Virus record (IMG/VR): IMGVR_UViG_2684622579_000003
Source of the DNA: a virus
Taxonomy: Duplodnaviria; Heunggongvirae; Uroviricota; Caudoviricetes
Direction: 5' to 3' (one strand)
Length of the DNA: 24,498 bases
Shown: piece by piece, positions 1-12,166 of the stretch
How the letters are laid out: each line of letters starts with the position of its first letter
How positions within the stretch are numbered: position 1 is the stretch's first letter
Notes under the pieces: model-generated
Told to the model about the DNA's origin: nothing
What the model saw: the letters and a program-made list of their open reading frames with translations, nothing else
Database searches by the model: none
Made by a program: the position numbers and the translations under genes

Positions 1-1053
1 TTACGGGGTAATGCCAACCGCTGCCGCCACTTTGTCGCCACTTGGCAGCGTTGCCAGAGGATTGAAACGGAGCGCCGTTTCCAGATGATCCGGTGCCAGA
101 TGTGCGTAACGCATAGTCATTTTTATATCGTGGTGTCCGAGAATTTTTTGTAAAGCCAGAATGTTTCCACCCGACATCATGAAGTGCGCCGCAAACGTAT
201 GGCGCAGAACGTGTGTGAGTTGACCGCGAGGGAGCACGATAGACGTTTTTTCCATCACGGATAAAAATTGAAAATAGCAGTCTGTGAAGAAATTGAACCC
301 ATCAAGCGCCATGATCTCTTCGTAAAGCTCTTTACTGATAGGGATGCTTCTGTTTTTCTTCCCCTTCGTTCTTACAAAGGTAATTCGGTATTTGGTCACC
401 TGTGAGCGGGTAAGATTTACGGCTTCTCGCCAGCGTGCGCCTGTGCTTAAGCATATCTTAACTACCAGTGCCAGAATTGGGTCCTGACGTTTGCAATCAG
501 CTAGTAATTCAACAATCTGCTCATGGGTAAGCCATGCCATCTCTTTTTCTGCGATGGTGAATTTTCGCATGTTCTCCAGTGGGTTCGGATACGACCATTC
601 GCCCAGGCGGGATAGTTCGCTAAAAACACTACTTAGATAGCTTTGCTCCAGGTTAATGGTGACCGGGCTTGCTCCTTTCTTCCATTTCTCACTGAAGTAG
701 ATCTCACCTGTCAGGCGTTTATCTCGATAGTGGGCAAACATTTTAGAGGTTAGATCAGTTGCAAGGGGATTGCCCAGAGCGTCAACCATCAGCAGCAATT
801 TGTCATAGACATGCTGCCCAGCAGTCAGAGATTTACCATGTAGTTTGAACCATAGCTCAACCACGTCTTTCAGTGTTCGACGATCCACTGATTCACCCAG
901 CCAGGGCTTTGCTTCGGTTTCTTCCATCGTGTGACGCTCAAAAGCCAGTGCTTCGCCTTTGGTGGCGAATTGTTTACGCACACGACGCCCACTACGTCCG
1001 GCGGGGTAACATTCGCAAAGCCATTTTCCTGTGGTGAGTTTTCGTACTGCCAT
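1..1053 (-). CDS. int: Tyrosine recombinase / phage integrase (P2/186-type), 350 aa; stop codon is the first 3 bases of the window
   Basis: Full ORF on minus strand. C-terminal catalytic region has the integrase-type signature (HVLRHTFA...H.D...TMRYAHL with the terminal Tyr). Position downstream of cI matches P2/186 layout. Confidence 0.9.
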   Translation of the reverse strand: MAVRKLTTGKWLCECYPAGRSGRRVRKQFATKGEALAFERHTMEETEAKPWLGESVDRRTLKDVVELWFKLHGKSLTAGQHVYDKLLLMVDALGNPLATDLTSKMFAHYRDKRLTGEIYFSEKWKKGASPVTINLEQSYLSSVFSELSRLGEWSYPNPLENMRKFTIAEKEMAWLTHEQIVELLADCKRQDPILALVVKICLSTGARWREAVNLTRSQVTKYRITFVRTKGKKNRSIPISKELYEEIMALDGFNFFTDCYFQFLSVMEKTSIVLPRGQLTHVLRHTFAAHFMMSGGNILALQKILGHHDIKMTMRYAHLAPDHLETALRFNPLATLPSGDKVAAAVGITP

Positions 1054-1058
1054 AATAA

Positions 1059-1078
1059 AGCCCTCATATCAGAGGGCT
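1059..1078 (-). terminator. Hairpin (AGCCCTC / loop / GAGGGCT) followed on the minus strand by TTTATT, directly abutting the int ATG
   Basis: 7-bp perfect inverted repeat at 1059-1065 / 1072-1078 read directly from sequence; on the minus strand it sits between the KAP stop and the int start, with a short U-tract. Confidence 0.4.
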
Positions 1079-1139
1079 AAATTTAACTGTATGTTTGACC
1101 AGTGGTCAATGTATGGTTTAGTTTATTCAAACAATGCTT

Positions 1140-2657
1140 TTAATCAAATGATGTGGCCAGTTCAATTAATTCAATGTAATTATGTAAGGCATAAAAAGAT
1201 GTATTCAGACCATTCTCTATAAGGGCTCCTTGCAAATACTTTATAGCTGTATCACCATCAATAGGGCCTTGTTGAGATATAATCATTAGTGAATTTTGCC
1301 CATTGTTTTTTATACTTGATTTAAGCATGTTTATATTATTAATAAAATACAATGCAACATCTAAGTAATTTATTAATGTTAAATTTATTTTGGGCTCGAT
1401 CTGTGAGATGAATAATCTACTGCTCGCCGTTCTATAGATATAATTGACACCTATTCTTTGCTGATTTGTATCAAGATTTAATTCAAGGATGGCTTGAGAA
1501 ACACCTTTTAAATTGGAGCTTTGCTTTATCGAATCAGTGAAACGTTGTGCTGCATTTCTTCGACCAATTAGTCCATCTATAATTTGACGATCCTTATCAT
1601 ATATAATCATTAGCGAAATTATAAAAATATAATCTACTTTCTTTTTGACTAAATCAGATTTAAGAATGTCTATTAACCTTTCAGTATTTCGGATTGAGTC
1701 TCTTAGATTTAACCCAAATGCTTCAAATACGTTGGAAATATTTATTGAAAAGTCTTCTAATGTTGCTGTTAGTGGGTATGTTTTTGATGTGATATTTTCA
1801 AAATCGGTACCAATATAATCACCAACAACACCATTAATTAAATCTTTAAGTTCAGGTTGTTTTAAAGTAAATCTTCTATGAAAAAAACGGCCTAAATAGT
1901 CATTTGCGGAAAAATCATTACCGTAAACATTCTTGATTGAATGTTGTAATTGATCTGTGTCAGTAGCAATAATAAAGACAAAATTTTTAATATCGAATAT
2001 ATGTTTAACAATCTCTAAAAGAGAAATTGCATAATCTGGCCTGCATCTGTCTAATTCATCTATAAAGATAAATATAGGACATGAAAAACTATTTTCATAT
2101 GCCAACCTAGACCATAACGTTAGTTCTTTTTTTAATACCTTAATGCTCTTCAGTTTTTCCTGGTGTTCCTTCAGCATTATTAATGAGGCTTCTTTGGCTA
2201 TATCACCTACGTTATCTACTCCTGCATAAGTCTTGATTAGGCCAGATATGATTTCAGGTAGAACACCTTTTGTAAAGCGTCCGATAGCATGGCCGCTTTG
2301 TATCAATCGAGCATCAAGTTTTCCTGCATATGTTTGCAATTGTTGTGACAAAGAAGAAAAAAGGGTTAAAAATGCATCATCAGAAAAGTCTTGCTTCCAG
2401 GCATCAATGTAAACGCATGGGTGTGCATCTTTTATTGAGTTATAAAATCTCTTTATGAAAAAACTTTTACCAGCTCCCCATTCTGCATTAAGGTTGATTA
2501 CCGTGTTGTTCTTTTGCCCCTTTTCCTTAAGATAAAAATATAGATATTCTGCATAGTGTCTCCGATTAAGTTTGTCTTTGGAAAGAATTTCCTCTTCGTC
2601 GTCTAATATAAAGGTAGTTTCTTCATCCCAGTTCCAATTACAATCACCACATTTCAC
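1140..2657 (-). CDS. KAP-family P-loop NTPase (505 aa), probable GTG start, AT-rich cargo gene
   Basis: Walker A embedded in the KAP-typical context NLNAEWGAGKSFF; Walker B-like IFIFIDELDRCRP (hhhhDELDR). GGAG about 8 nt upstream of the GTG. GC content visibly lower than the phage backbone. Confidence 0.7.
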   Translation of the reverse strand: MKCGDCNWNWDEETTFILDDEEEILSKDKLNRRHYAEYLYFYLKEKGQKNNTVINLNAEWGAGKSFFIKRFYNSIKDAHPCVYIDAWKQDFSDDAFLTLFSSLSQQLQTYAGKLDARLIQSGHAIGRFTKGVLPEIISGLIKTYAGVDNVGDIAKEASLIMLKEHQEKLKSIKVLKKELTLWSRLAYENSFSCPIFIFIDELDRCRPDYAISLLEIVKHIFDIKNFVFIIATDTDQLQHSIKNVYGNDFSANDYLGRFFHRRFTLKQPELKDLINGVVGDYIGTDFENITSKTYPLTATLEDFSINISNVFEAFGLNLRDSIRNTERLIDILKSDLVKKKVDYIFIISLMIIYDKDRQIIDGLIGRRNAAQRFTDSIKQSSNLKGVSQAILELNLDTNQQRIGVNYIYRTASSRLFISQIEPKINLTLINYLDVALYFINNINMLKSSIKNNGQNSLMIISQQGPIDGDTAIKYLQGALIENGLNTSFYALHNYIELIELATSFD

Positions 2658-2682
2658 TATGAAGTCTCCATGAAAAATTTAC

Positions 2683-3606
2683 TTAATGTAAACAACTTAT
2701 AATAACTTTTGCAATAAACTCAATGTCTGTAAGCGAACATTCAAAAGAGTGATTTTGGGATGAAATATAAACTCGTCCTTTAGGTAGTCGAGTTATCATT
2801 CTAAATGAATTCTCTCCATCAATATTTACTAGCCACTTACCATCATGTACATCTTTAAAACCCATTTCACATATTAATTCAGAGTCTTCGGTAGATACTA
2901 CGAATGCATTTTTTAAATTGGAAGGTAGAAAGCATGGGTCAAATAAATATGAGCCATCATTTATTAACTTGCCATTGATTAATACTTTTTTCACTAATGT
3001 TAAAGTATCTTTATTTTTTGCGTTTTTCATTTCTCCTGTACCAAATGAAATCCATTCAATAGAATGGCCCGTTTCTATTGCACACTGCAAAACCCAGTCT
3101 GCAGGAAAAATGTCACGCATGTATCGTGTGGCTAATGTGCTTTTTGAAATACCTAGGTGATCAGCTAATGCTTGGCGCGTTTTGTAACCGTAAGCCTCGA
3201 CAATTCGTTCTATTGTTGCCTTACCCCCTCGGTTAAAATTCATGAGTTTTTCATTATCGAACTTTATAGTGGGAATGTATACTTCATTGCAAAGGCCATT
3301 AACGGCATGTTTTTCAGAATATTGCTCTGATGAAGGAGCAGTATCTGAACCAAGAACTAACCATTCAATTGATGCTCCTGTTTCTATGGAACATATAACA
3401 ACCCAATCTGCAGGAAAGGTATTACGTGCATATCTGTTGGCCATAGTACTTTGGGAAATACCTAGATGATTACATAATGCCTGTCGTGACTTGAAGCCAT
3501 AGGCTAGGAGTATACGCTCAATAACTTTTTGCCCTCCACGATTCTGCATAACTATTGCTTTCAGATCGTTTTTGATATGGCTAAATTTTAATTTTTGAGT
3601 TGACAT
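2683..3606 (-). CDS. CI-repressor paralog with tandem duplicated N-terminal HTH domain plus CI-like C-terminal domain (307 aa)
   Basis: Two consecutive copies of the module IER..AYG.K.RQAL..HLGIS.ST.A.RY.R..FPA.WV..C.IETG.S.EW, followed by a C-terminal region alignable to the C-terminal half of the adjacent 191-aa CI (..DG.Y.FD..FLPS.LKN.FV....S...IC...F.D..DGKW...ID.E...R.ITRLP.GR...). Internal Met at residue 122 (codon 3241-3243). Confidence 0.75.
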   Translation of the reverse strand: MSTQKLKFSHIKNDLKAIVMQNRGGQKVIERILLAYGFKSRQALCNHLGISQSTMANRYARNTFPADWVVICSIETGASIEWLVLGSDTAPSSEQYSEKHAVNGLCNEVYIPTIKFDNEKLMNFNRGGKATIERIVEAYGYKTRQALADHLGISKSTLATRYMRDIFPADWVLQCAIETGHSIEWISFGTGEMKNAKNKDTLTLVKKVLINGKLINDGSYLFDPCFLPSNLKNAFVVSTEDSELICEMGFKDVHDGKWLVNIDGENSFRMITRLPKGRVYISSQNHSFECSLTDIEFIAKVIISCLH

Positions 3607-3656
3607 ATTTTTTACACCACAACAAATGCTTTACCAAGCATAAAAACATTCCTATA

Positions 3657-4232
3657 TTACTCAAAGTACTTAACTGTTATGCTTATAATTTTTCCAATAA
3701 TTTCGATTTCTTCTTTTTTACATTCGAAAGCCCTATTTCCACCTTCAACTAAGATTCTTCCACCAGGTAAACGAGTGATATCGCGGATTGTTACTTCGGC
3801 ATCAATACTTATTACCCATTTGCCGTCACGAATATCGTTAAACTCTTTATCGCAAATAAAAACGGAATTGTTATCGGTGATTACAAACGGATTTTTGAGC
3901 GTAGATGGTAGAAATTCTTTATCGAAAATATAAAAACCATCTTCCTGCAAGGTTCCATCAGATAATACATATTTAACGACTTCCATAGTATTTGTATTAC
4001 CTGAAGTTTGCTTTGAACCATGTCCGGTCGTGAGCCAGTTAAGCGAGGCGCCCGTTTCAAGTGCGCACTGGATTACCCATTCAGCAGGGAATGAGTCACG
4101 CATATAGCGTGTGGCGAGAGTACTTTTAGAGATTCCTAAGTGATCGCACAACGCCTGTCGAGTCTTGAAGCCATATGCTTCTACCATGCGCTCTATAGCG
4201 CCTCGTCCGCCTTTCTCCAAATTCATGGTCAC
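3657..4232 (-). CDS. cI: Immunity repressor CI, phage-186 type (191 aa)
   Basis: Length and sequence recall 186 CI (N-terminal HTH ..EAYGF...LA.HL.IS.S.L..RY.R......CALETGA.L.WL.TG). Located immediately upstream of int and divergent from apl/cII. GGAG-like RBS upstream of the ATG. Confidence 0.85.
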   Translation of the reverse strand: MTMNLEKGGRGAIERMVEAYGFKTRQALCDHLGISKSTLATRYMRDSFPAEWVIQCALETGASLNWLTTGHGSKQTSGNTNTMEVVKYVLSDGTLQEDGFYIFDKEFLPSTLKNPFVITDNNSVFICDKEFNDIRDGKWVISIDAEVTIRDITRLPGGRILVEGGNRAFECKKEEIEIIGKIISITVKYFE

Positions 4233-4250
4233 TCCAAGTGAACTTTTGTC

Positions 4251-4279
4251 TTGACGATTTCATTATGCGATCGTATGTT
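4251..4279 (+). promoter_or_regulatory. Sigma70-like rightward promoter (TTGACG - 17 bp - TATGTT) in the cI/apl switch region; candidate lytic promoter pR
   Basis: Hexamers and 17-bp spacing read directly from sequence, about 70 bp upstream of the apl ATG. The 119-bp cI-apl intergenic region is the expected 186-type switch. Confidence 0.5.
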
Positions 4280-4351
4280 TATGATGTTCACAAAATACAA
4301 ACGATCCGTATTCGTCCTGATTAATCAACATTAAACGAGGAATGTTGCATC

Positions 4352-4573
4352 ATGAAACCTAACATTTCAATCACTCTTACCACGCCTCATGTGACTATTG
4401 AACGTTATAGCGAGCTGACAGGGCTATCCATCGATACTATCAATGACATGTTGGCTGATGGACGTCTTATCCGTCACCGTCTGCGGAAAGATAAAAAACG
4501 CGAAAAAGTGATGATCAACATAGCAGCCATGACCGTTGATGCGCTTTCAGAATGCAATCTAAACCTTAATTAG
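4352..4573 (+). CDS. apl: Apl/Cox-like excisionase and transcriptional regulator (73 aa)
   Basis: Small basic protein encoded first in the rightward operon, divergent from cI, directly preceding cII as in phage 186. Confidence 0.65.
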
Positions 4574-4599
4574 TTCGATTCTGAAATACATCAGAGGCA

Positions 4600-5115
4600 T
4601 TGACCATGTTTGATTACCAAGTTTCCAAACACCCGCATTTTGATGAAGCCTGTAGAGCTTTTGCACTTCGTCACAATATGGCGAAGCTGGCAGAACGTGC
4701 AGGAATGAATGTCCAGACTCTGCGAAACAAACTCAACCCAGATCAACCGCATCAGCTCAATGCGCCAGAAATCTGGCTGCTTACCGATCTGACTGAAGAT
4801 TCAACGCTGGTAGATGGCTTTCTGGCACAGATTCACTGCCTGCCATGTGTACCGATTAATGAGGTGGCAAAAGAGAAACTGCCGCATTACGTCATGAGTG
4901 CAACTGCAGAGATAGGGCGTGTCGCGGCAGGTGCGGTTTCTGGCGATGTAAAAACCAGTGCAGGCCGTCGTGATGCGATCAGCAGCATTAACTCTGTTAC
5001 ACGACTGATGGCGCTGGCTGCTGTTTCATTGCAGGCCCGTTTACAGGCTAATCCTGCGATGGCGAGTGCAGTTGATACCGTGACTGGCCTCGGTGCTTCA
5101 TTCGGTTTGCTGTGA
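4600..5115 (+). CDS. cII: CII-like lysogeny establishment regulator, 186 type (171 aa)
   Basis: Size and position match 186 CII. Possible HTH in the region [21 protein letters not shown]. The Ala/Ser-rich C-terminus is typical of a degradation-prone tail. Confidence 0.7.
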
Positions 5116-5122
5116 GGTGCTT

Positions 5123-5323
5123 ATGCTGACGAAAGAACCATCATTTGCATCGCTGCTGGTAAAACAAAGTCCGGCAATGCACTACGGTCACGGCTGGATC
5201 ATGGGTGAGGATGGTAAACGCTGGCATCCGTGCCGTTCACAAGATGAATTGCTGGCAGAACTATCAACGAAAAAACGGGGGAACCAATGGCTATTGAAGG
5301 CGCTGCGGCGACTGTTCCATTAA
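5123..5323 (+). CDS. Hypothetical early-operon protein (about 66 aa from the ATG at 5123)
   Basis: ORF in the early rightward operon; GAGGTG RBS-like sequence before the ATG at 5123. No recognisable motif. Confidence 0.45.
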   Translation: MLTKEPSFASLLVKQSPAMHYGHGWIMGEDGKRWHPCRSQDELLAELSTKKRGNQWLLKALRRLFH

Positions 5324-5929: not shown

Positions 5930-6156
5930 TGGCTGATGCAATGGATCTCGTACAGCAGCGCGTTGAAGAAGAACGCCAGCGTCATATCCGTGCTGCCCGC
6001 GCCAAAACGCCGGGCGTATCCCGCGTGCTTTGCATTGAGTGTGAAGCACCAATTCCGCCAGCACGACGTCGCGCCATTCCGGGTGTGCAGCTTTGCATTA
6101 CCTGTCAGGAAATCGCAGAGCTGAAAGGCAAACATTACAACGGAGGTGCTGTATGA
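5929..6156 (+). CDS. TraR/DksA-family C4 zinc-finger protein (75 aa)
   Basis: C-x2-C ... C-x2-C (CIECEAP...CITCQEIA) with a preceding basic helical region, as in phage TraR/DksA-like proteins. Confidence 0.7.
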   Translation: MADAMDLVQQRVEEERQRHIRAARAKTPGVSRVLCIECEAPIPPARRRAIPGVQLCITCQEIAELKGKHYNGGAV

Positions 6157-7010
6157 GCACCATCCTGAAATGGGCGGGTAATAAAACCGCCATTATGCCA
6201 GAACTGAAAAAATACCTTCCTGCTGGCCCGCGACTGGTTGAACCTTTCGCGGGTTCTTGTGCTGTGATGATAGAGACGGATTACCCCAGCTATCTTGTTG
6301 CGGATATTAATCCTGATTTAATCAACCTCTATAAAAAGGTTGCTGCTGATTGCGAGGCGTTTATATCTCGTGCCAGAGCTTTATTTGAGGAAGCAAACAG
6401 GGAGGTGGCTTATTACAACATAAGGCAGGAGTTTAATTACTCCACTGAAATTACTGATTTCATGAAAGCGGTATATTTCCTGTATCTCAATCGTCATGGT
6501 TACCGTGGGTTATGTCGCTATAACAAGAGCGGGCATTTCAACATTCCCTACGGGAATTATAAAAATCCGTATTTCCCTGAAAAAGAAATTCGCAAATTTG
6601 CAGAAAAAGCCCAGCGAGCAACGTTTATCTGCGCCAGCTTTGATGAAACGCTGGCGATGTTGAAGGCGGGGGATGTGGTGTATTGCGATCCGCCTTATGA
6701 CGGTACGTTTTCCGGCTATCACACTGATGGCTTCACTGAGGATGACCAGTATCACCTGGCATCCGTTCTTGAACATCGATCATCTGAAGGTCATCCGGTC
6801 ATTGTTTCTAACAGTGACACATCCCTGATTCGTTCGCTGTATCGCAATTTCACTCACCACTACATCAAGGCAAAACGCAGCATCGGCGTGTCGGCTGGCG
6901 AGAGTAAATCTGCAACAGAAATCATTGCTGTTTCCGGGGCGCGCTGCTGGGTGGGATTTGATCCTTCGCGTGGCGTGGATAGTTCTGCTGTGTACGAGGT
7001 GCGTGTATGA
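6153..7010 (+). CDS. dam: DNA adenine (N6) methyltransferase, Dam-like orphan MTase
   Basis: Motif I (EPFAGSCAV) near the N-terminus and catalytic motif IV DPPY (VYCDPPYDG); N-terminal KWAGNK typical of Dam. Start placed at the ATG at 6153; the track ORF begins further upstream at 6093. Confidence 0.85.
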
Positions 7011-9513: not shown

Positions 9514-9533
9514 TACTGTAAATATAAACAGTG
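9514..9533 (+). promoter_or_regulatory. LexA (SOS) box TACTGTAAATATAAACAGTG overlapping a promoter-like region
   Basis: Perfect CTGT-N8-ACAG with AT-rich spacer, read directly from sequence. Upstream TTTACA (9491-9496) and TATACT (9512-9517) resemble -35/-10 elements. About 40 bp upstream of a small ORF with a strong RBS. Confidence 0.7.
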
Positions 9534-9574
9534 GTTATACATACAGTATTGCTTGTGGTGTCATAGGAGGAAAG

Positions 9575-9763
9575 ATGCAGGACTATTTTTTGGAGTCTTT
9601 GAAGCTCCAACGCATTGATTTTTTTCTTAAGCTTGTAGCGGCTAGTGAGTGTAGTGATGAAGAGAAGGGGCTGGCCCTGCAGTGGGTTTCTGAACTGACA
9701 GATGAACTCATGGCAAAAATCAGAAGCCACGAATACAACCGCTCAATGGATGTCATCAGCTGA
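9575..9763 (+). CDS. Small hypothetical protein (62 aa from the ATG at 9575), first gene of the putative SOS-controlled operon
   Basis: AGGAGG RBS at 9564-9569, then ATG at 9575, within track ORF 9473..9763. Lies downstream of the LexA box. Confidence 0.55.
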   Translation: MQDYFLESLKLQRIDFFLKLVAASECSDEEKGLALQWVSELTDELMAKIRSHEYNRSMDVIS

Positions 9764-9773
9764 GGGGACTTTT

Positions 9774-10007
9774 ATGCGCATTGAAATAATGATCGATAAA
9801 GAGCAGAAGATTAGCCAGTCTACCCTGGACGCCCTTGAATCAGAGCTTTACCGCAATCTGCGCCCCCTGTATCCCAAAACGGTAATTCGTATCCGTAAAG
9901 GTAGCTCTAACGGTGTGGAACTGACCGGACTGCAACTGGACGAAGAAAGGAAACAAGTGATGAAAATTATGCAGAAGGTGTGGGAAGACGACAGCTGGCT
10001 GCATTAA
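9774..10007 (+). CDS. dinI: DinI-family protein (77 aa)
   Basis: MRIEI.I.K ... L..EL.R ... KIMQKVWEDDSWL closely resembles E. coli DinI (MRIEVTIAK ... ETWES.DDWF). Start at the ATG at 9774 within track ORF 9702..10007. Confidence 0.75.
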   Translation: MRIEIMIDKEQKISQSTLDALESELYRNLRPLYPKTVIRIRKGSSNGVELTGLQLDEERKQVMKIMQKVWEDDSWLH

Positions 10008-10391: not shown

Positions 10392-11510
10392 ATGTATCTT
10401 TTCAAGTATTACCGTCCGGACTTCTTCTTCGAGAAAGCTATTCGTTATAATGAATTATATTTTTCCGCTCCTGCGCAATTGAATGATCCCAATGATCTCA
10501 ATATAGATTATCGCTTCGATAATAAATTGAAATTATGGGATATTTTATTGCGTTCTCCTTGCGATAAATCCTATAAAAATTTGAGTCACATATTGGATTT
10601 GAGTAATTTGAAAATACATAAGGGATTGAATCGTATTTTTAGAGGAAAAAAAATAAAAAGTAGCATTGAGTCATTAGATAGCCTGTTTGACTCACACGTT
10701 GATGAGATACGTAAGATCATAGATGATGGTTTACTACCTATCAATGTGATTAATTCTGCTATTTATGGAAATATTCCTGAACCACGCCAATATTTAGTTT
10801 CACTTTGCGAGAACAGTATCAAAGAAAGGTTGTATAGGAAAATAGTTCCTGCAGTATTCAGTGTGTCATTTTCAGCTAATGCGTTAGATCGTATGATGTG
10901 GGCGCATTATGCTGCTGGCTTTAGTGGTTGTGTTGTGATTTATGAAACGCAGGATTTTAATATTGATGGTATATCCTATACTGGAATGAAGCTAAGAGAA
11001 AATTTATTTTCATCAGATAAATTTAATTTTCCAGTTAAGCCAATAAAATATAGTAATCAGGCTAAAGAGGTTTCACTTCTAGACCCAAGCGCAAATGTTG
11101 CAGAGTTATTTTTAACTAAAAATAGATTTTGGAGATATGAAGCTGAATATCGAATGTTTATTCCGGAGGCAAATGCAGGAATAGGGAGTGAGCGGCATGT
11201 TCAAAGACGCGTAAATCGAAATATTGGACATATTTTTCATCATGATGCTAATGTTGTTAAAGGGATCATTTTTGGTCCTAGAATGTGTGAAATGAAAAAA
11301 GAAAGCATATGGAATTGTATCAAGTCAAATATGGAGAATTCAAATTCAACAATATGTTATTTTTTTGACTCTGAGTTATCAGCATCAGGAAAGATTACTA
11401 TTTCAAAAGGGCAACGAGCGGAAAAAATGAAAAATTTCACTTTGTTCAGGAACAAGTTAAGTCAGACGGAAATGGCTAAAGTTTTGAAGGAAATTGGCAT
11501 TACGAACTAA
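10392..11510 (+). CDS. DUF2971-like protein (372 aa), AT-rich cargo gene at the tin/old-equivalent locus
   Basis: N-terminal signature LFKYYRP....... ELYFSAPAQLNDPNDL matches the DUF2971 hallmark as I recall it. Very low GC; sits between replication gene A and cos, where P2 carries tin and old. Confidence 0.6.
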   Translation: MYLFKYYRPDFFFEKAIRYNELYFSAPAQLNDPNDLNIDYRFDNKLKLWDILLRSPCDKSYKNLSHILDLSNLKIHKGLNRIFRGKKIKSSIESLDSLFDSHVDEIRKIIDDGLLPINVINSAIYGNIPEPRQYLVSLCENSIKERLYRKIVPAVFSVSFSANALDRMMWAHYAAGFSGCVVIYETQDFNIDGISYTGMKLRENLFSSDKFNFPVKPIKYSNQAKEVSLLDPSANVAELFLTKNRFWRYEAEYRMFIPEANAGIGSERHVQRRVNRNIGHIFHHDANVVKGIIFGPRMCEMKKESIWNCIKSNMENSNSTICYFFDSELSASGKITISKGQRAEKMKNFTLFRNKLSQTEMAKVLKEIGITN

Positions 11511-11869: not shown

Positions 11870-12166
11870 ATGAAAACTACTTATAGCTATGATTTTCAAT
11901 ATATGCGCAAAGGTCAGGATCGCCCTGATGATGATGGAGAGGTTGTAGGGTGTAATTCAGAAGACAACTCGCTTTTGATGCTTCCAAATGTGGGAGACTA
12001 CGTAACAATTACGAATAAGGGTGGGCGTGCTCAATTTGATGGGCGGGTGAAAACAAGGCTTTTCAATTACCTACGCATTGCTGATGGTCATGTTCATTGC
12101 TCCATTTGCATTGTAGTTGAGGAAGTTGATATGGACTCCGTATGGGGGGCACTAATTAAAGAATAA
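11870..12166 (+). CDS. Hypothetical protein (98 aa), AT-rich moron between cos and Q
   Basis: ORF with low GC, followed immediately by a hairpin terminator. No recognisable motif; two Cys pairs (C28, C77/C80). Confidence 0.5.
   Translation: MKTTYSYDFQYMRKGQDRPDDDGEVVGCNSEDNSLLMLPNVGDYVTITNKGGRAQFDGRVKTRLFNYLRIADGHVHCSICIVVEEVDMDSVWGALIKE

Follow-up and report, generated by a model that had tools for sequence, protein, structure and literature searches.

Background

The CI repressor of coliphage 186 wraps DNA on a wheel of seven dimers, and its C-terminal domain (CTD) mediates both dimer and wheel formation. Here we compare this protein and its relatives with ORF307, an open reading frame (ORF) of 307 codons on the minus strand of a 24,498-nucleotide (nt) stretch of Caudoviricetes DNA (IMG/VR record IMGVR_UViG_2684622579_000003); we refer to the whole stretch as the window, and it is the left half of a 186/P2-like prophage. 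Like 186 CI (structures 2FJR and 2FKD), the ORF307 protein has a PF07022 helix-turn-helix (HTH) domain and a PF16452 CTD, the modelled CTD superposing on 2fkd_A with a TM-score of 0.90 and a root mean square deviation of 1.6 Å (Foldseek), and the neighbourhood is that of phage 186 (int, cI, apl, cII, fil, replication gene). Unlike 186 CI, to which it is about 28% identical in the Foldseek alignment, ORF307 has at its N-terminus an extra, diverged HTH with a disordered linker (about 35 residues), and here it lies away from the switch; wheel formation and operator binding by ORF307 are only predicted.

Two other groups of repressors resemble parts of ORF307. The first comprises tandem-HTH CI proteins that serve their phages as the only repressor (PSP3, 286 amino acids (aa); 4LV2017, 313 aa; P0002-P0006 of E. 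coli and Salmonella) and that share with ORF307 two PF07022 domains and a PF16452 domain; the 4LV2017 protein is 62% identical to ORF307 overall. These proteins face apl/cox and, in their main clade, start with an ATG that lies over the -35 hexamer of pR, whereas ORF307 does neither and has a different CTD. The second group comprises free-standing CI proteins of 186 aa (P0033, P0038, P0030), which are 67-72% identical to residues 122-307 of ORF307 and whose DNA is colinear with the window from int through the KAP NTPase gene to the cI start. Unlike ORF307, they have a single HTH and a strong Shine-Dalgarno (SD) sequence, and each, being the only repressor of its phage, faces a 67-aa apl-like gene. 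According to PMC9283540, a mycobacteriophage immunity repressor is monomeric and holds two DNA-reading domains in one polypeptide; its combination of folds is unrelated to that of ORF307 and it reads an asymmetric site, and its likeness to ORF307 is one of analogy only.

Among the 186-type repressors, the length difference in PsP3 and a CFT073 prophage has been described as "a longer C-terminal domain" in the single paper that we found to comment on it (PMC3448106). In the literature we found no description of a second HTH in a 186-type CI protein, or of the ORF307 gene.

Domain structure of ORF307

An initial annotation, made from the letters of the window alone, had proposed that the HTH module of CI occurs once in the resident cI gene and twice in ORF307, and that the 307-aa protein is an extra HTH domain placed ahead of a complete CI unit. 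Both proposals are borne out. Pfam assigns PF07022 (Phage_CI_repr) twice to ORF307 (E 3.8e-56, well over the 22-bit cutoff), followed by PF16452 (Phage_CI_C; E 1.5e-25), and residues 131-302 can be aligned over their full length with residues 10-182 of the 186 CI structure 2FJR. In the resident CI, Pfam finds a single PF07022 and a single PF16452 domain. The features of ORF307 are as follows, with module coordinates calculated from Pfam and hidden Markov model (HMM) domain envelopes; the coordinates first given for the three modules were approximately right, but each cut off the 3' part of its module.

2683-3606, minus strand: ORF307, tandem-HTH CI repressor of the 186 type, made up of HTH1, linker, HTH2 and CTD (Pfam and AlphaFold model)
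3544-3606, minus strand: N-terminal extension, residues 1-21, ahead of the HTH1 core; low model confidence (pLDDT) for residues 1-20; its ATG overlaps the remnant pR -35 hexamer
3340-3543, minus strand: HTH1 module, residues 22-89, recognition helix SQSTMANRYARN (HMM envelope)
3244-3339, minus strand: flexible linker between the HTH modules, residues 90-121; pLDDT below 50 for residues 91-123, and variable in the family alignment
3031-3243, minus strand: Met122 (3241-3243) and HTH2 module (residues 125-192; 3031-3234), recognition helix SKSTLATRYMRD (HMM envelope)
2701-2988, minus strand: CTD for oligomerisation, Phage_CI_C (PF16452; Foldseek match 2fkd_A)

Pairwise alignment of the 68-residue modules, as the initial annotation had suggested, gives identities of 71% between CI and HTH2, 59% between CI and HTH1 and 63% between HTH1 and HTH2, and the three nucleotide modules align with a mean column identity of 65%. 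The recognition helix of HTH2, SKSTLATRYMRD, is the same as that of the resident CI. Structure prediction of the 307-aa protein alone, also suggested at the outset, yielded a monomeric AlphaFold model, built on 36 homologues, with five-helix bundles at residues 13-85 and 128-188, a disordered stretch at 91-123 that corresponds to the linker of about 35 residues, and a beta domain at 202-306. The stretch from Met122 (MNFNRGG) to the stop was noted early on as being CI-sized; it is 186 aa long and colinear at the DNA level with the free-standing 186-aa cI genes. The CTD of ORF307 is 65-70% identical to the CTDs of the 186-aa proteins P0033 and P0038 and 47% identical to that of the resident CI. 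In Pfam, ORF307 has no Peptidase_S24 match and the resident CI only a sub-threshold one (17.1 bits, with a cutoff of 23.3 bits), and LexA CTDs show distant fold similarity only (Foldseek). By this measure ORF307 is not an S24 self-cleaving repressor; instead, a LexA-boxed, Tum-like antirepressor module is present in the window.

A part of the window spanning 1100-4700 (3.6 kb) was found at 99.1-100% identity in 17 of the 5426 complete E. coli genomes, including enteropathogenic E. coli (EPEC) E2348/69, and in all 17 the annotation gives cI and ORF307 each as a CI coding sequence. Hosts and countries of origin vary widely among the carrier strains. ORF307 is free of internal stops in all five copies examined, namely that of the window and four carrier copies that we re-translated, and the few substitutions in these carriers (1-4 per genome) are conservative and confined to the CTD, so few that a selection test within the lineage has no power. 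One carrier (L092, NZ_JBRERE010000002.1) has int, KAP, ORF307, cI and apl on a 150-kb record that is labelled a plasmid, which may reflect either a true plasmid-borne prophage or a labelling issue. An assembly or frameshift artefact that joins two separate genes into one long ORF can be excluded for practical purposes, nothing having been found in its favour: the same architecture recurs in 17 complete genomes, in sequenced phages such as PSP3 and 4LV2017, and across 46 independent clusters of proteins. We regard ORF307 as a complete tandem-HTH member of the phage 186-type CI immunity repressors and as probably functional.

Tandem-HTH CI proteins as a family architecture

From a search of 5.8 billion proteins we obtained 612 relatives and counted the modules in the best 120 clusters at 90% identity. 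Two HTH modules are present in 46 of these 120 clusters, in proteins of 290-330 aa. Among the 87 complete 186-type CI representatives of a 50%-identity library, 13 are tandem-HTH and none has three modules. We delimit the tandem-HTH CI subfamily here by two PF07022 domains, a variable linker of 25-50 residues and then the CTD. ORF307 has this composition, and its HTH1 helix, SQSTMANRYARN, is one substitution away from the consensus SQSTMANRYARD that typifies the main clade; its HTH1 is 81-86% identical to the HTH1 of the sole-repressor proteins P0002-P0006. Wherever else we examined its context, the tandem-HTH protein stands as the single CI and directly faces apl/cox:

Klebsiella phages 4LV2017 and ST11-OXA245phi3.1: single tandem-HTH CI facing apl/cox
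ECE228 prophage of E. coli, likewise located at rcdA: single tandem-HTH CI facing apl/cox
Loci of P0002, P0004 and P0005: single tandem-HTH CI facing apl/cox
E. coli subtype beside an AAA_15 and DUF4276 pair, and an Edwardsiella prophage (loci L098 and L100): sole tandem-HTH CI facing apl/cox
Salmonella phage PSP3: sole tandem-HTH CI of 286 aa, "CI; immunity repressor", with two PF07022 stretches

We observed that HTH2 groups with the N-terminal domains of single-HTH CI proteins (mean identity 72%), with the common helix SKST[LM]A[TN]RY[ML]RD, and that the HTH1 modules form a clade of their own in 35 of the 46 cases, with the near-invariant helix SQSTMANRYARD, which differs from that of HTH2. 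The ratio of non-synonymous to synonymous substitution rates (dN/dS) is 0.04-0.15 for HTH1, with 0.10-0.15 for the HTH1 module of ORF307, 0.07-0.24 for HTH2 and 0.3-0.8 for the linker, the CTDs being saturated, and a value of about 0.14 persists in comparisons that take in the branch of the window. At the family level, both HTH heads therefore look functional. The fusion probably arose more than once, because the two modules of PSP3 are closer to each other (52% identity) than to those of ORF307 (38-48%), which suggests an independent duplication, and because HTH1 helices of the single-HTH type occur in minor tandem-HTH subtypes. The tandem-HTH CI is thus a widespread variant, annotated from sequence but mechanistically unstudied: a sizeable natural subfamily of two-headed repressors that has hitherto been annotated simply as CI.

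The family alignment also bears on the proposal that ORF307 is expressed as two products, the 307-aa protein and a 186-aa protein that starts at Met122, with the shorter one as the working repressor. The exact colinearity of the stretch from Met122 to the stop with the free-standing 186-aa cI genes speaks for it. However, Met122 is kept only in the closest relatives of ORF307, its position being occupied by I, V, L or F in most others; the sequence before this AUG, AAUGAAAAACUC, contains no SD, whereas the free-standing homologue has GGAGG; and the strong purifying selection on HTH1 implies that the long form is the selected product. We find no support for an internal start and consider two products highly improbable.

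Two observations concern the CTD in this subfamily. Loci L085, L086 and L088 (and L081 or L002) have near-identical switch DNA, apl and HTH regions, with CTDs at saturation (dN 0.6-0.9), and it seems that in tandem-HTH phages the oligomerisation domain is swapped or diversifies far faster than the DNA-binding heads. In locus L004 (Dryocola sp. BD586, 5995-6690), the 229-aa protein P0066 has two HTH modules and no CTD; either a tandem-HTH CI has been truncated here, or this is a natural variant that consists of the heads alone.

Mosaic origin of the locus

ORF307 follows a canonical cI as second gene in the window. The prophage region of EPEC E2348/69 adjoins rcdA and is annotated as integrase, KAP NTPase, CI, CI, hypothetical (apl) and CII, and the minus strand of the window has the corresponding order cI, ORF307, KAP NTPase and int; its plus strand carries apl, followed by cII, fil, a dam methylase gene and a replication gene. 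The features that bear on the origin of this arrangement are the following.

1-1053, minus strand: integrase gene int, last gene of the leftward lysogenic unit
1140-2657, minus strand: KAP P-loop NTPase, candidate defence gene (PF07693; PADLOC PDC-S20, E 8e-78), co-inherited with the ORF307 CTD
3600-3605, plus strand: orphan TTGACA, former pR -35 of the native switch of ORF307 (window GAGTTGACATATTTTTTACACC, native GAGTTGACATATTCTTTATGCGAACCTATTCT); the -10 and the operators are deleted
3612-3641, minus strand: remnant ORF MLGKAFVVV-stop, nine codons of the 63-aa gene that usually follows cI (comparison with L084), with its stop 5 nt before the ORF307 ATG
3614-3616, no strand: recombination joint of the canonical cI module with the tandem-HTH gene; the homology to L084 reaches as far as 3616, that to L081, L002 and L085 as far as 3614
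3657-4232, minus strand: resident canonical cI (PF07022 and PF16452), 92% identical at the nt level to L084, the common E. coli type

By BLAST of the window against related loci we divided this region into three segments. Segment 1 (1-3242) holds int, KAP and the part of ORF307 between the Met122 ATG and the stop; it is colinear, with 72-78% nt identity, to loci L093, L094 and L097, whose only cI encodes a 186-aa single-HTH protein and is followed by a KAP gene of about 503 codons (73% aa identity) and then int. The homology to the 186-aa cI genes stops at the Met122 ATG (window 3242, L094 5002). Segment 2 (3039-3614) is 79% identical to the sole-repressor tandem-HTH genes, and segment 3 (3616-5200) matches L084, the common E. 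coli type with the order int, 63-aa ORF, cI, apl and cII, at 92% identity. Segments 1 and 2 overlap over 3039-3242, the HTH2 coding region; since this interval is homologous to both the tandem-HTH genes and the 186-aa cI genes, the crossover is likely to lie within it. The second joint lies 8-10 nt upstream of the ORF307 ATG.

In main-clade tandem-HTH phages, the cI ATG overlaps the -35 hexamer of pR (GTTGACAT), and in most relatives that bear the N-terminal extension, the codons of a TFRH motif, which is KFSH in ORF307, carry a TGTGA motif beside this -35. Since the window has kept the -35 while the -10 and everything beyond it are gone, ORF307 is left without promoter and operators inside the leftward unit. 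In this it differs from its homologues in every other locus examined. The arrangement of a cI followed by a second CI was seen in none of the 78 representative loci, although the underlying genome scan took one genome per species and nearly all of its loci are single-HTH, so that it gives a coarse estimate of rarity.

The arrangement is a recombination mosaic and a by-product of modular recombination. The three HTH copies, first described as diverged and in tandem, are indeed homologous, but they did not arise by local triplication; they belong to three phage lineages joined by recombination. As a first step, a crossover in the HTH2 region would have put a two-HTH N-terminus, of the type present in the ECE228 prophage of E. 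coli and in Klebsiella phage 4LV2017, in front of a CTD-KAP-int block whose source phage encoded a 186-aa CI. In a second step, illegitimate recombination 8-10 nt upstream of the ATG would have swapped the native side of the switch (pR/pL and apl) for the canonical cI, pR/pL and apl. As an outcome, ORF307 is now the second cistron of the lysogenic operon cI-orf307-KAP-int and does not encode the switch repressor. The window thus offers a view, at nucleotide resolution, of an immunity swap that left an intact repressor as cargo of the lysogenic operon.

This history also accounts for the proximity of ORF307 to KAP, from which it had been suggested that ORF307 is a regulator or sensor dedicated to the neighbouring NTPase. 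The two genes are adjacent and co-occur in 17 of 17 E. coli carriers, and KAP matches the defence candidate PDC-S20. Nevertheless, the arrangement cI-KAP-int was taken over from phages whose ordinary switch repressor is a single-HTH CI, other tandem-HTH CI proteins adjoin unrelated cargo, ORF307 itself matches no PADLOC model, and there is no promoter-like gap between ORF307 and KAP. The adjacency is inherited synteny, and we judge a dedicated sensor to be a very remote prospect.

A different source for the N-terminal extension or the linker end, namely the 5' untranslated region of a cI gene, was considered and dropped, since local alignments with the sequence ahead of cI were unconvincing (p = 0.044 in a register that is not colinear; p = 0.43 and 0.68 in the others). 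The overlap of the main-clade ATG with the pR -35 holds all the same.

Expression of ORF307

The gap between cI and ORF307 is 50 nt and that between ORF307 and KAP is 25 nt. In a consensus scan that returned 15 promoter-like sites (15.2 expected), no promoter or terminator signal above chance was found between cI, ORF307 and KAP. In phage 186, int lies downstream of cI and has been used as a reporter of leftward lysogenic transcription (PMC7708051), and it is on this ground a reasonable inference that ORF307 is transcribed in lysogens. Transcription would start at the pL-type lysogenic promoter and, during establishment, also at a CII-activated promoter of the pE type. Up to the joint the initiation region of ORF307 is kept, being one position off the native sequence (TAAAAAATATG versus TAAAGAATATG), and translation would start from this nearly native region. 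Since the nine-codon remnant ORF stops 5 nt upstream of the ORF307 ATG, translation may also be coupled to it.

Possible role of ORF307

We lean, by a small balance of probability, towards the view that ORF307 is an intact tandem-HTH repressor of the 186 type that has been displaced from its own switch and now has an auxiliary or second-specificity role in immunity. A second-specificity repressor, a role already listed in the initial annotation, is plausible and the one we prefer. ORF307 would self-assemble through its own CTD, which has diverged from that of the resident CI, and would bind 186-type pR operators in trans; the lysogen would gain an extra immunity specificity against phages of the original immunity group of ORF307, and ORF307 might add to the repression of the resident pR. 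Phages of this group circulate in E. coli, since 45 E. coli genomes carry at least 80% of a probe made of HTH1 and the linker, 17 of them being of the window lineage. The slot between the integrase and replication genes has been described as a minor defence hotspot of P2-like phages (PMC13586616), and in relatives we found it to hold GmrSD and HEPN, an AAA_15 and DUF4276 pair, or KAP.

An excess of CI CTD induces the phage 186 prophage (PMC7708051), which we read as a dominant-negative effect. If so, a co-resident paralogue would be tolerated only if its CTD does not mix with that of the resident repressor. The 47% identity between the CTDs of ORF307 and CI fits such non-mixing but is no proof of it. 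Co-assembly of ORF307 with CI, which had also been envisaged, is less likely because the two CTDs are no more alike than this.

Several observations weigh against this view of ORF307. The 17 carriers differ by at most 0.9%, so that the intactness of ORF307 counts for little, and the purifying selection that we measured may largely predate the displacement. The TFRH motif is lost (KFSH) and a unique D-to-N change stands at the end of the HTH1 helix, both of which we take as mild evidence of relaxed constraint. There is no clear SD before the ORF307 ATG. A pR spacer core, GCGA(T/A)C, is common to all three kinds of switch (resident, tandem-HTH-type and 186-aa-type), and in HTH2 ORF307 carries the helix of the resident CI; the specificity of both repressors may thus be the same, and ORF307 may bind the resident pR. 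By pattern and repeat searches no operator for ORF307 could be defined, no signal rising above chance: the window shows no enrichment of TGTGAAC-like half-sites, with 56 present where 70 are expected, and direct or inverted repeats in the resident switch and inverted repeats in ORF307 and its homologues gave only short matches, possibly due to chance. Finally, the arrangement is seen in this lineage only.

Some of these observations would equally suit a functionless passenger, that is, a recent fossil of immunity-region replacement that is transcribed only because it lies between cI and int. The precise illegitimate joint took away promoter and operators, the lineage is young (17 of 5426 E. 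coli genomes, at least 99.1% identity) and its arrangement is absent from all 78 representative loci, the upstream region lacks an SD, and HTH1 shows the TFRH-to-KFSH and D-to-N changes. Against this stand the absence of internal stops from the window and the four re-translated carriers, one of them on the plasmid-labelled record, with conservative substitutions in the CTD only; an initiation region that up to the joint is one position off the native one; the dN/dS of about 0.14 in comparisons that include the window branch; and the diversity of hosts and countries among the carriers. We consider a mere relic unlikely, though it deserves to be taken seriously.

A further possibility is that ORF307 co-regulates the resident switch by binding the same pR operators through HTH2, alone or mixed with CI, and thereby tightens lysogeny or shifts the threshold of Tum-like induction. 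The switch and its surroundings comprise the following features.

4233-4351, no strand: resident switch region (consensus scan and alignment with other switches)
4251-4279, plus strand: resident pR, TTGACG-17-TATGTT (consensus scan)
4290-4262, minus strand: pL-like site in the resident switch (consensus scan)
4352-4573, plus strand: apl, Cox-like excisionase and repressor (phrog_575, E 1.4e-30)

Co-regulation would be in keeping with the identity of the HTH2 and resident CI helices, with the pR spacer core TTATGCGA(T/A)C common to the resident and tandem-HTH-type switches, with the position of cI and ORF307 in one operon and with the presence of the LexA-boxed Tum-like module. Hundreds of E. 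coli prophages, however, have a closely similar cI-apl module (91% nt identity) without ORF307, the CTDs are only 47% identical, and a mixing paralogue would be harmful if the effect of excess CI CTD (PMC7708051) is dominant-negative, the orthogonality of the two CTDs being our inference. We think co-regulation improbable.

Returning to a displaced repressor with its own immunity role, we offer a more tentative and somewhat doubtful extension: tandem-HTH CI proteins might form a 186-type wheel with two differing DNA-reading heads per subunit, 28 per wheel, and the promoter-less copy in this prophage may have been kept as immunity cargo that adds a second specificity, its diverged CTD sparing the resident wheel. 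Such a wheel would imply an operator grammar that differs from the 186 paradigm, and how two heads read their operators would extend the 186 CI model and supply parts for synthetic switches. If ORF307 is active, it would be a very cheap widening of the superinfection immunity of the host, encoded in a slot that also holds candidate defence genes. An inactive ORF307 would leave the locus as no more than a dated snapshot of how phages recombine by modules.

Other features of the window

The resident CI has 191 aa when read from the GTG at 4232 and 189 aa from the ATG at 4226, which is the RefSeq start; its HTH domain, calculated from the domain envelopes, lies at 4011-4202. An inverted repeat with arms TCAGATAATACATAT and ATTTGTATTACCTGA, separated by 17 nt, lies inside the linker-coding region of cI (3958-4004). 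A AAATACAAA-containing sequence (4287-4301) just downstream of pR, 281 nt off, can pair with the right arm of this repeat. The position of the repeat resembles that of the FL flanking site of phage 186; its significance is not established.

The KAP NTPase between ORF307 and int has 505 aa and is 73% identical to the KAP protein encoded after the 186-aa cI in L094. PDC-S20 is its best PADLOC model, the PifA and QatA models being weaker, and its coding region (1140-2657) is AT-rich, with a GC content of 27-37%.

A perfect LexA box, CTGTAAATATAAACAG, is present at 9516-9531 ahead of a 62-aa ORF (9575-9763, plus strand; phrog_698), and a separate 77-aa ORF of the DinI family (PF06183) lies at 9774-10007 on the plus strand. 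A 101-aa ORF (9702-10007) that contains the DinI part matches positions 65-148 of the 151-position PHROG profile phrog_189. The LexA-boxed module (9516-10007) looks like an SOS-controlled antirepressor module of the Tum type that is split into two genes.

Downstream of the replication gene, and followed by an ORF without annotation (11870-12166), a 372-aa ORF (10392-11510, plus strand) has a weak DUF2971 match and matches the PADLOC model PDC-S31 (E 9e-24). It is probably defence cargo in a hotspot between the replication gene and the portal gene.

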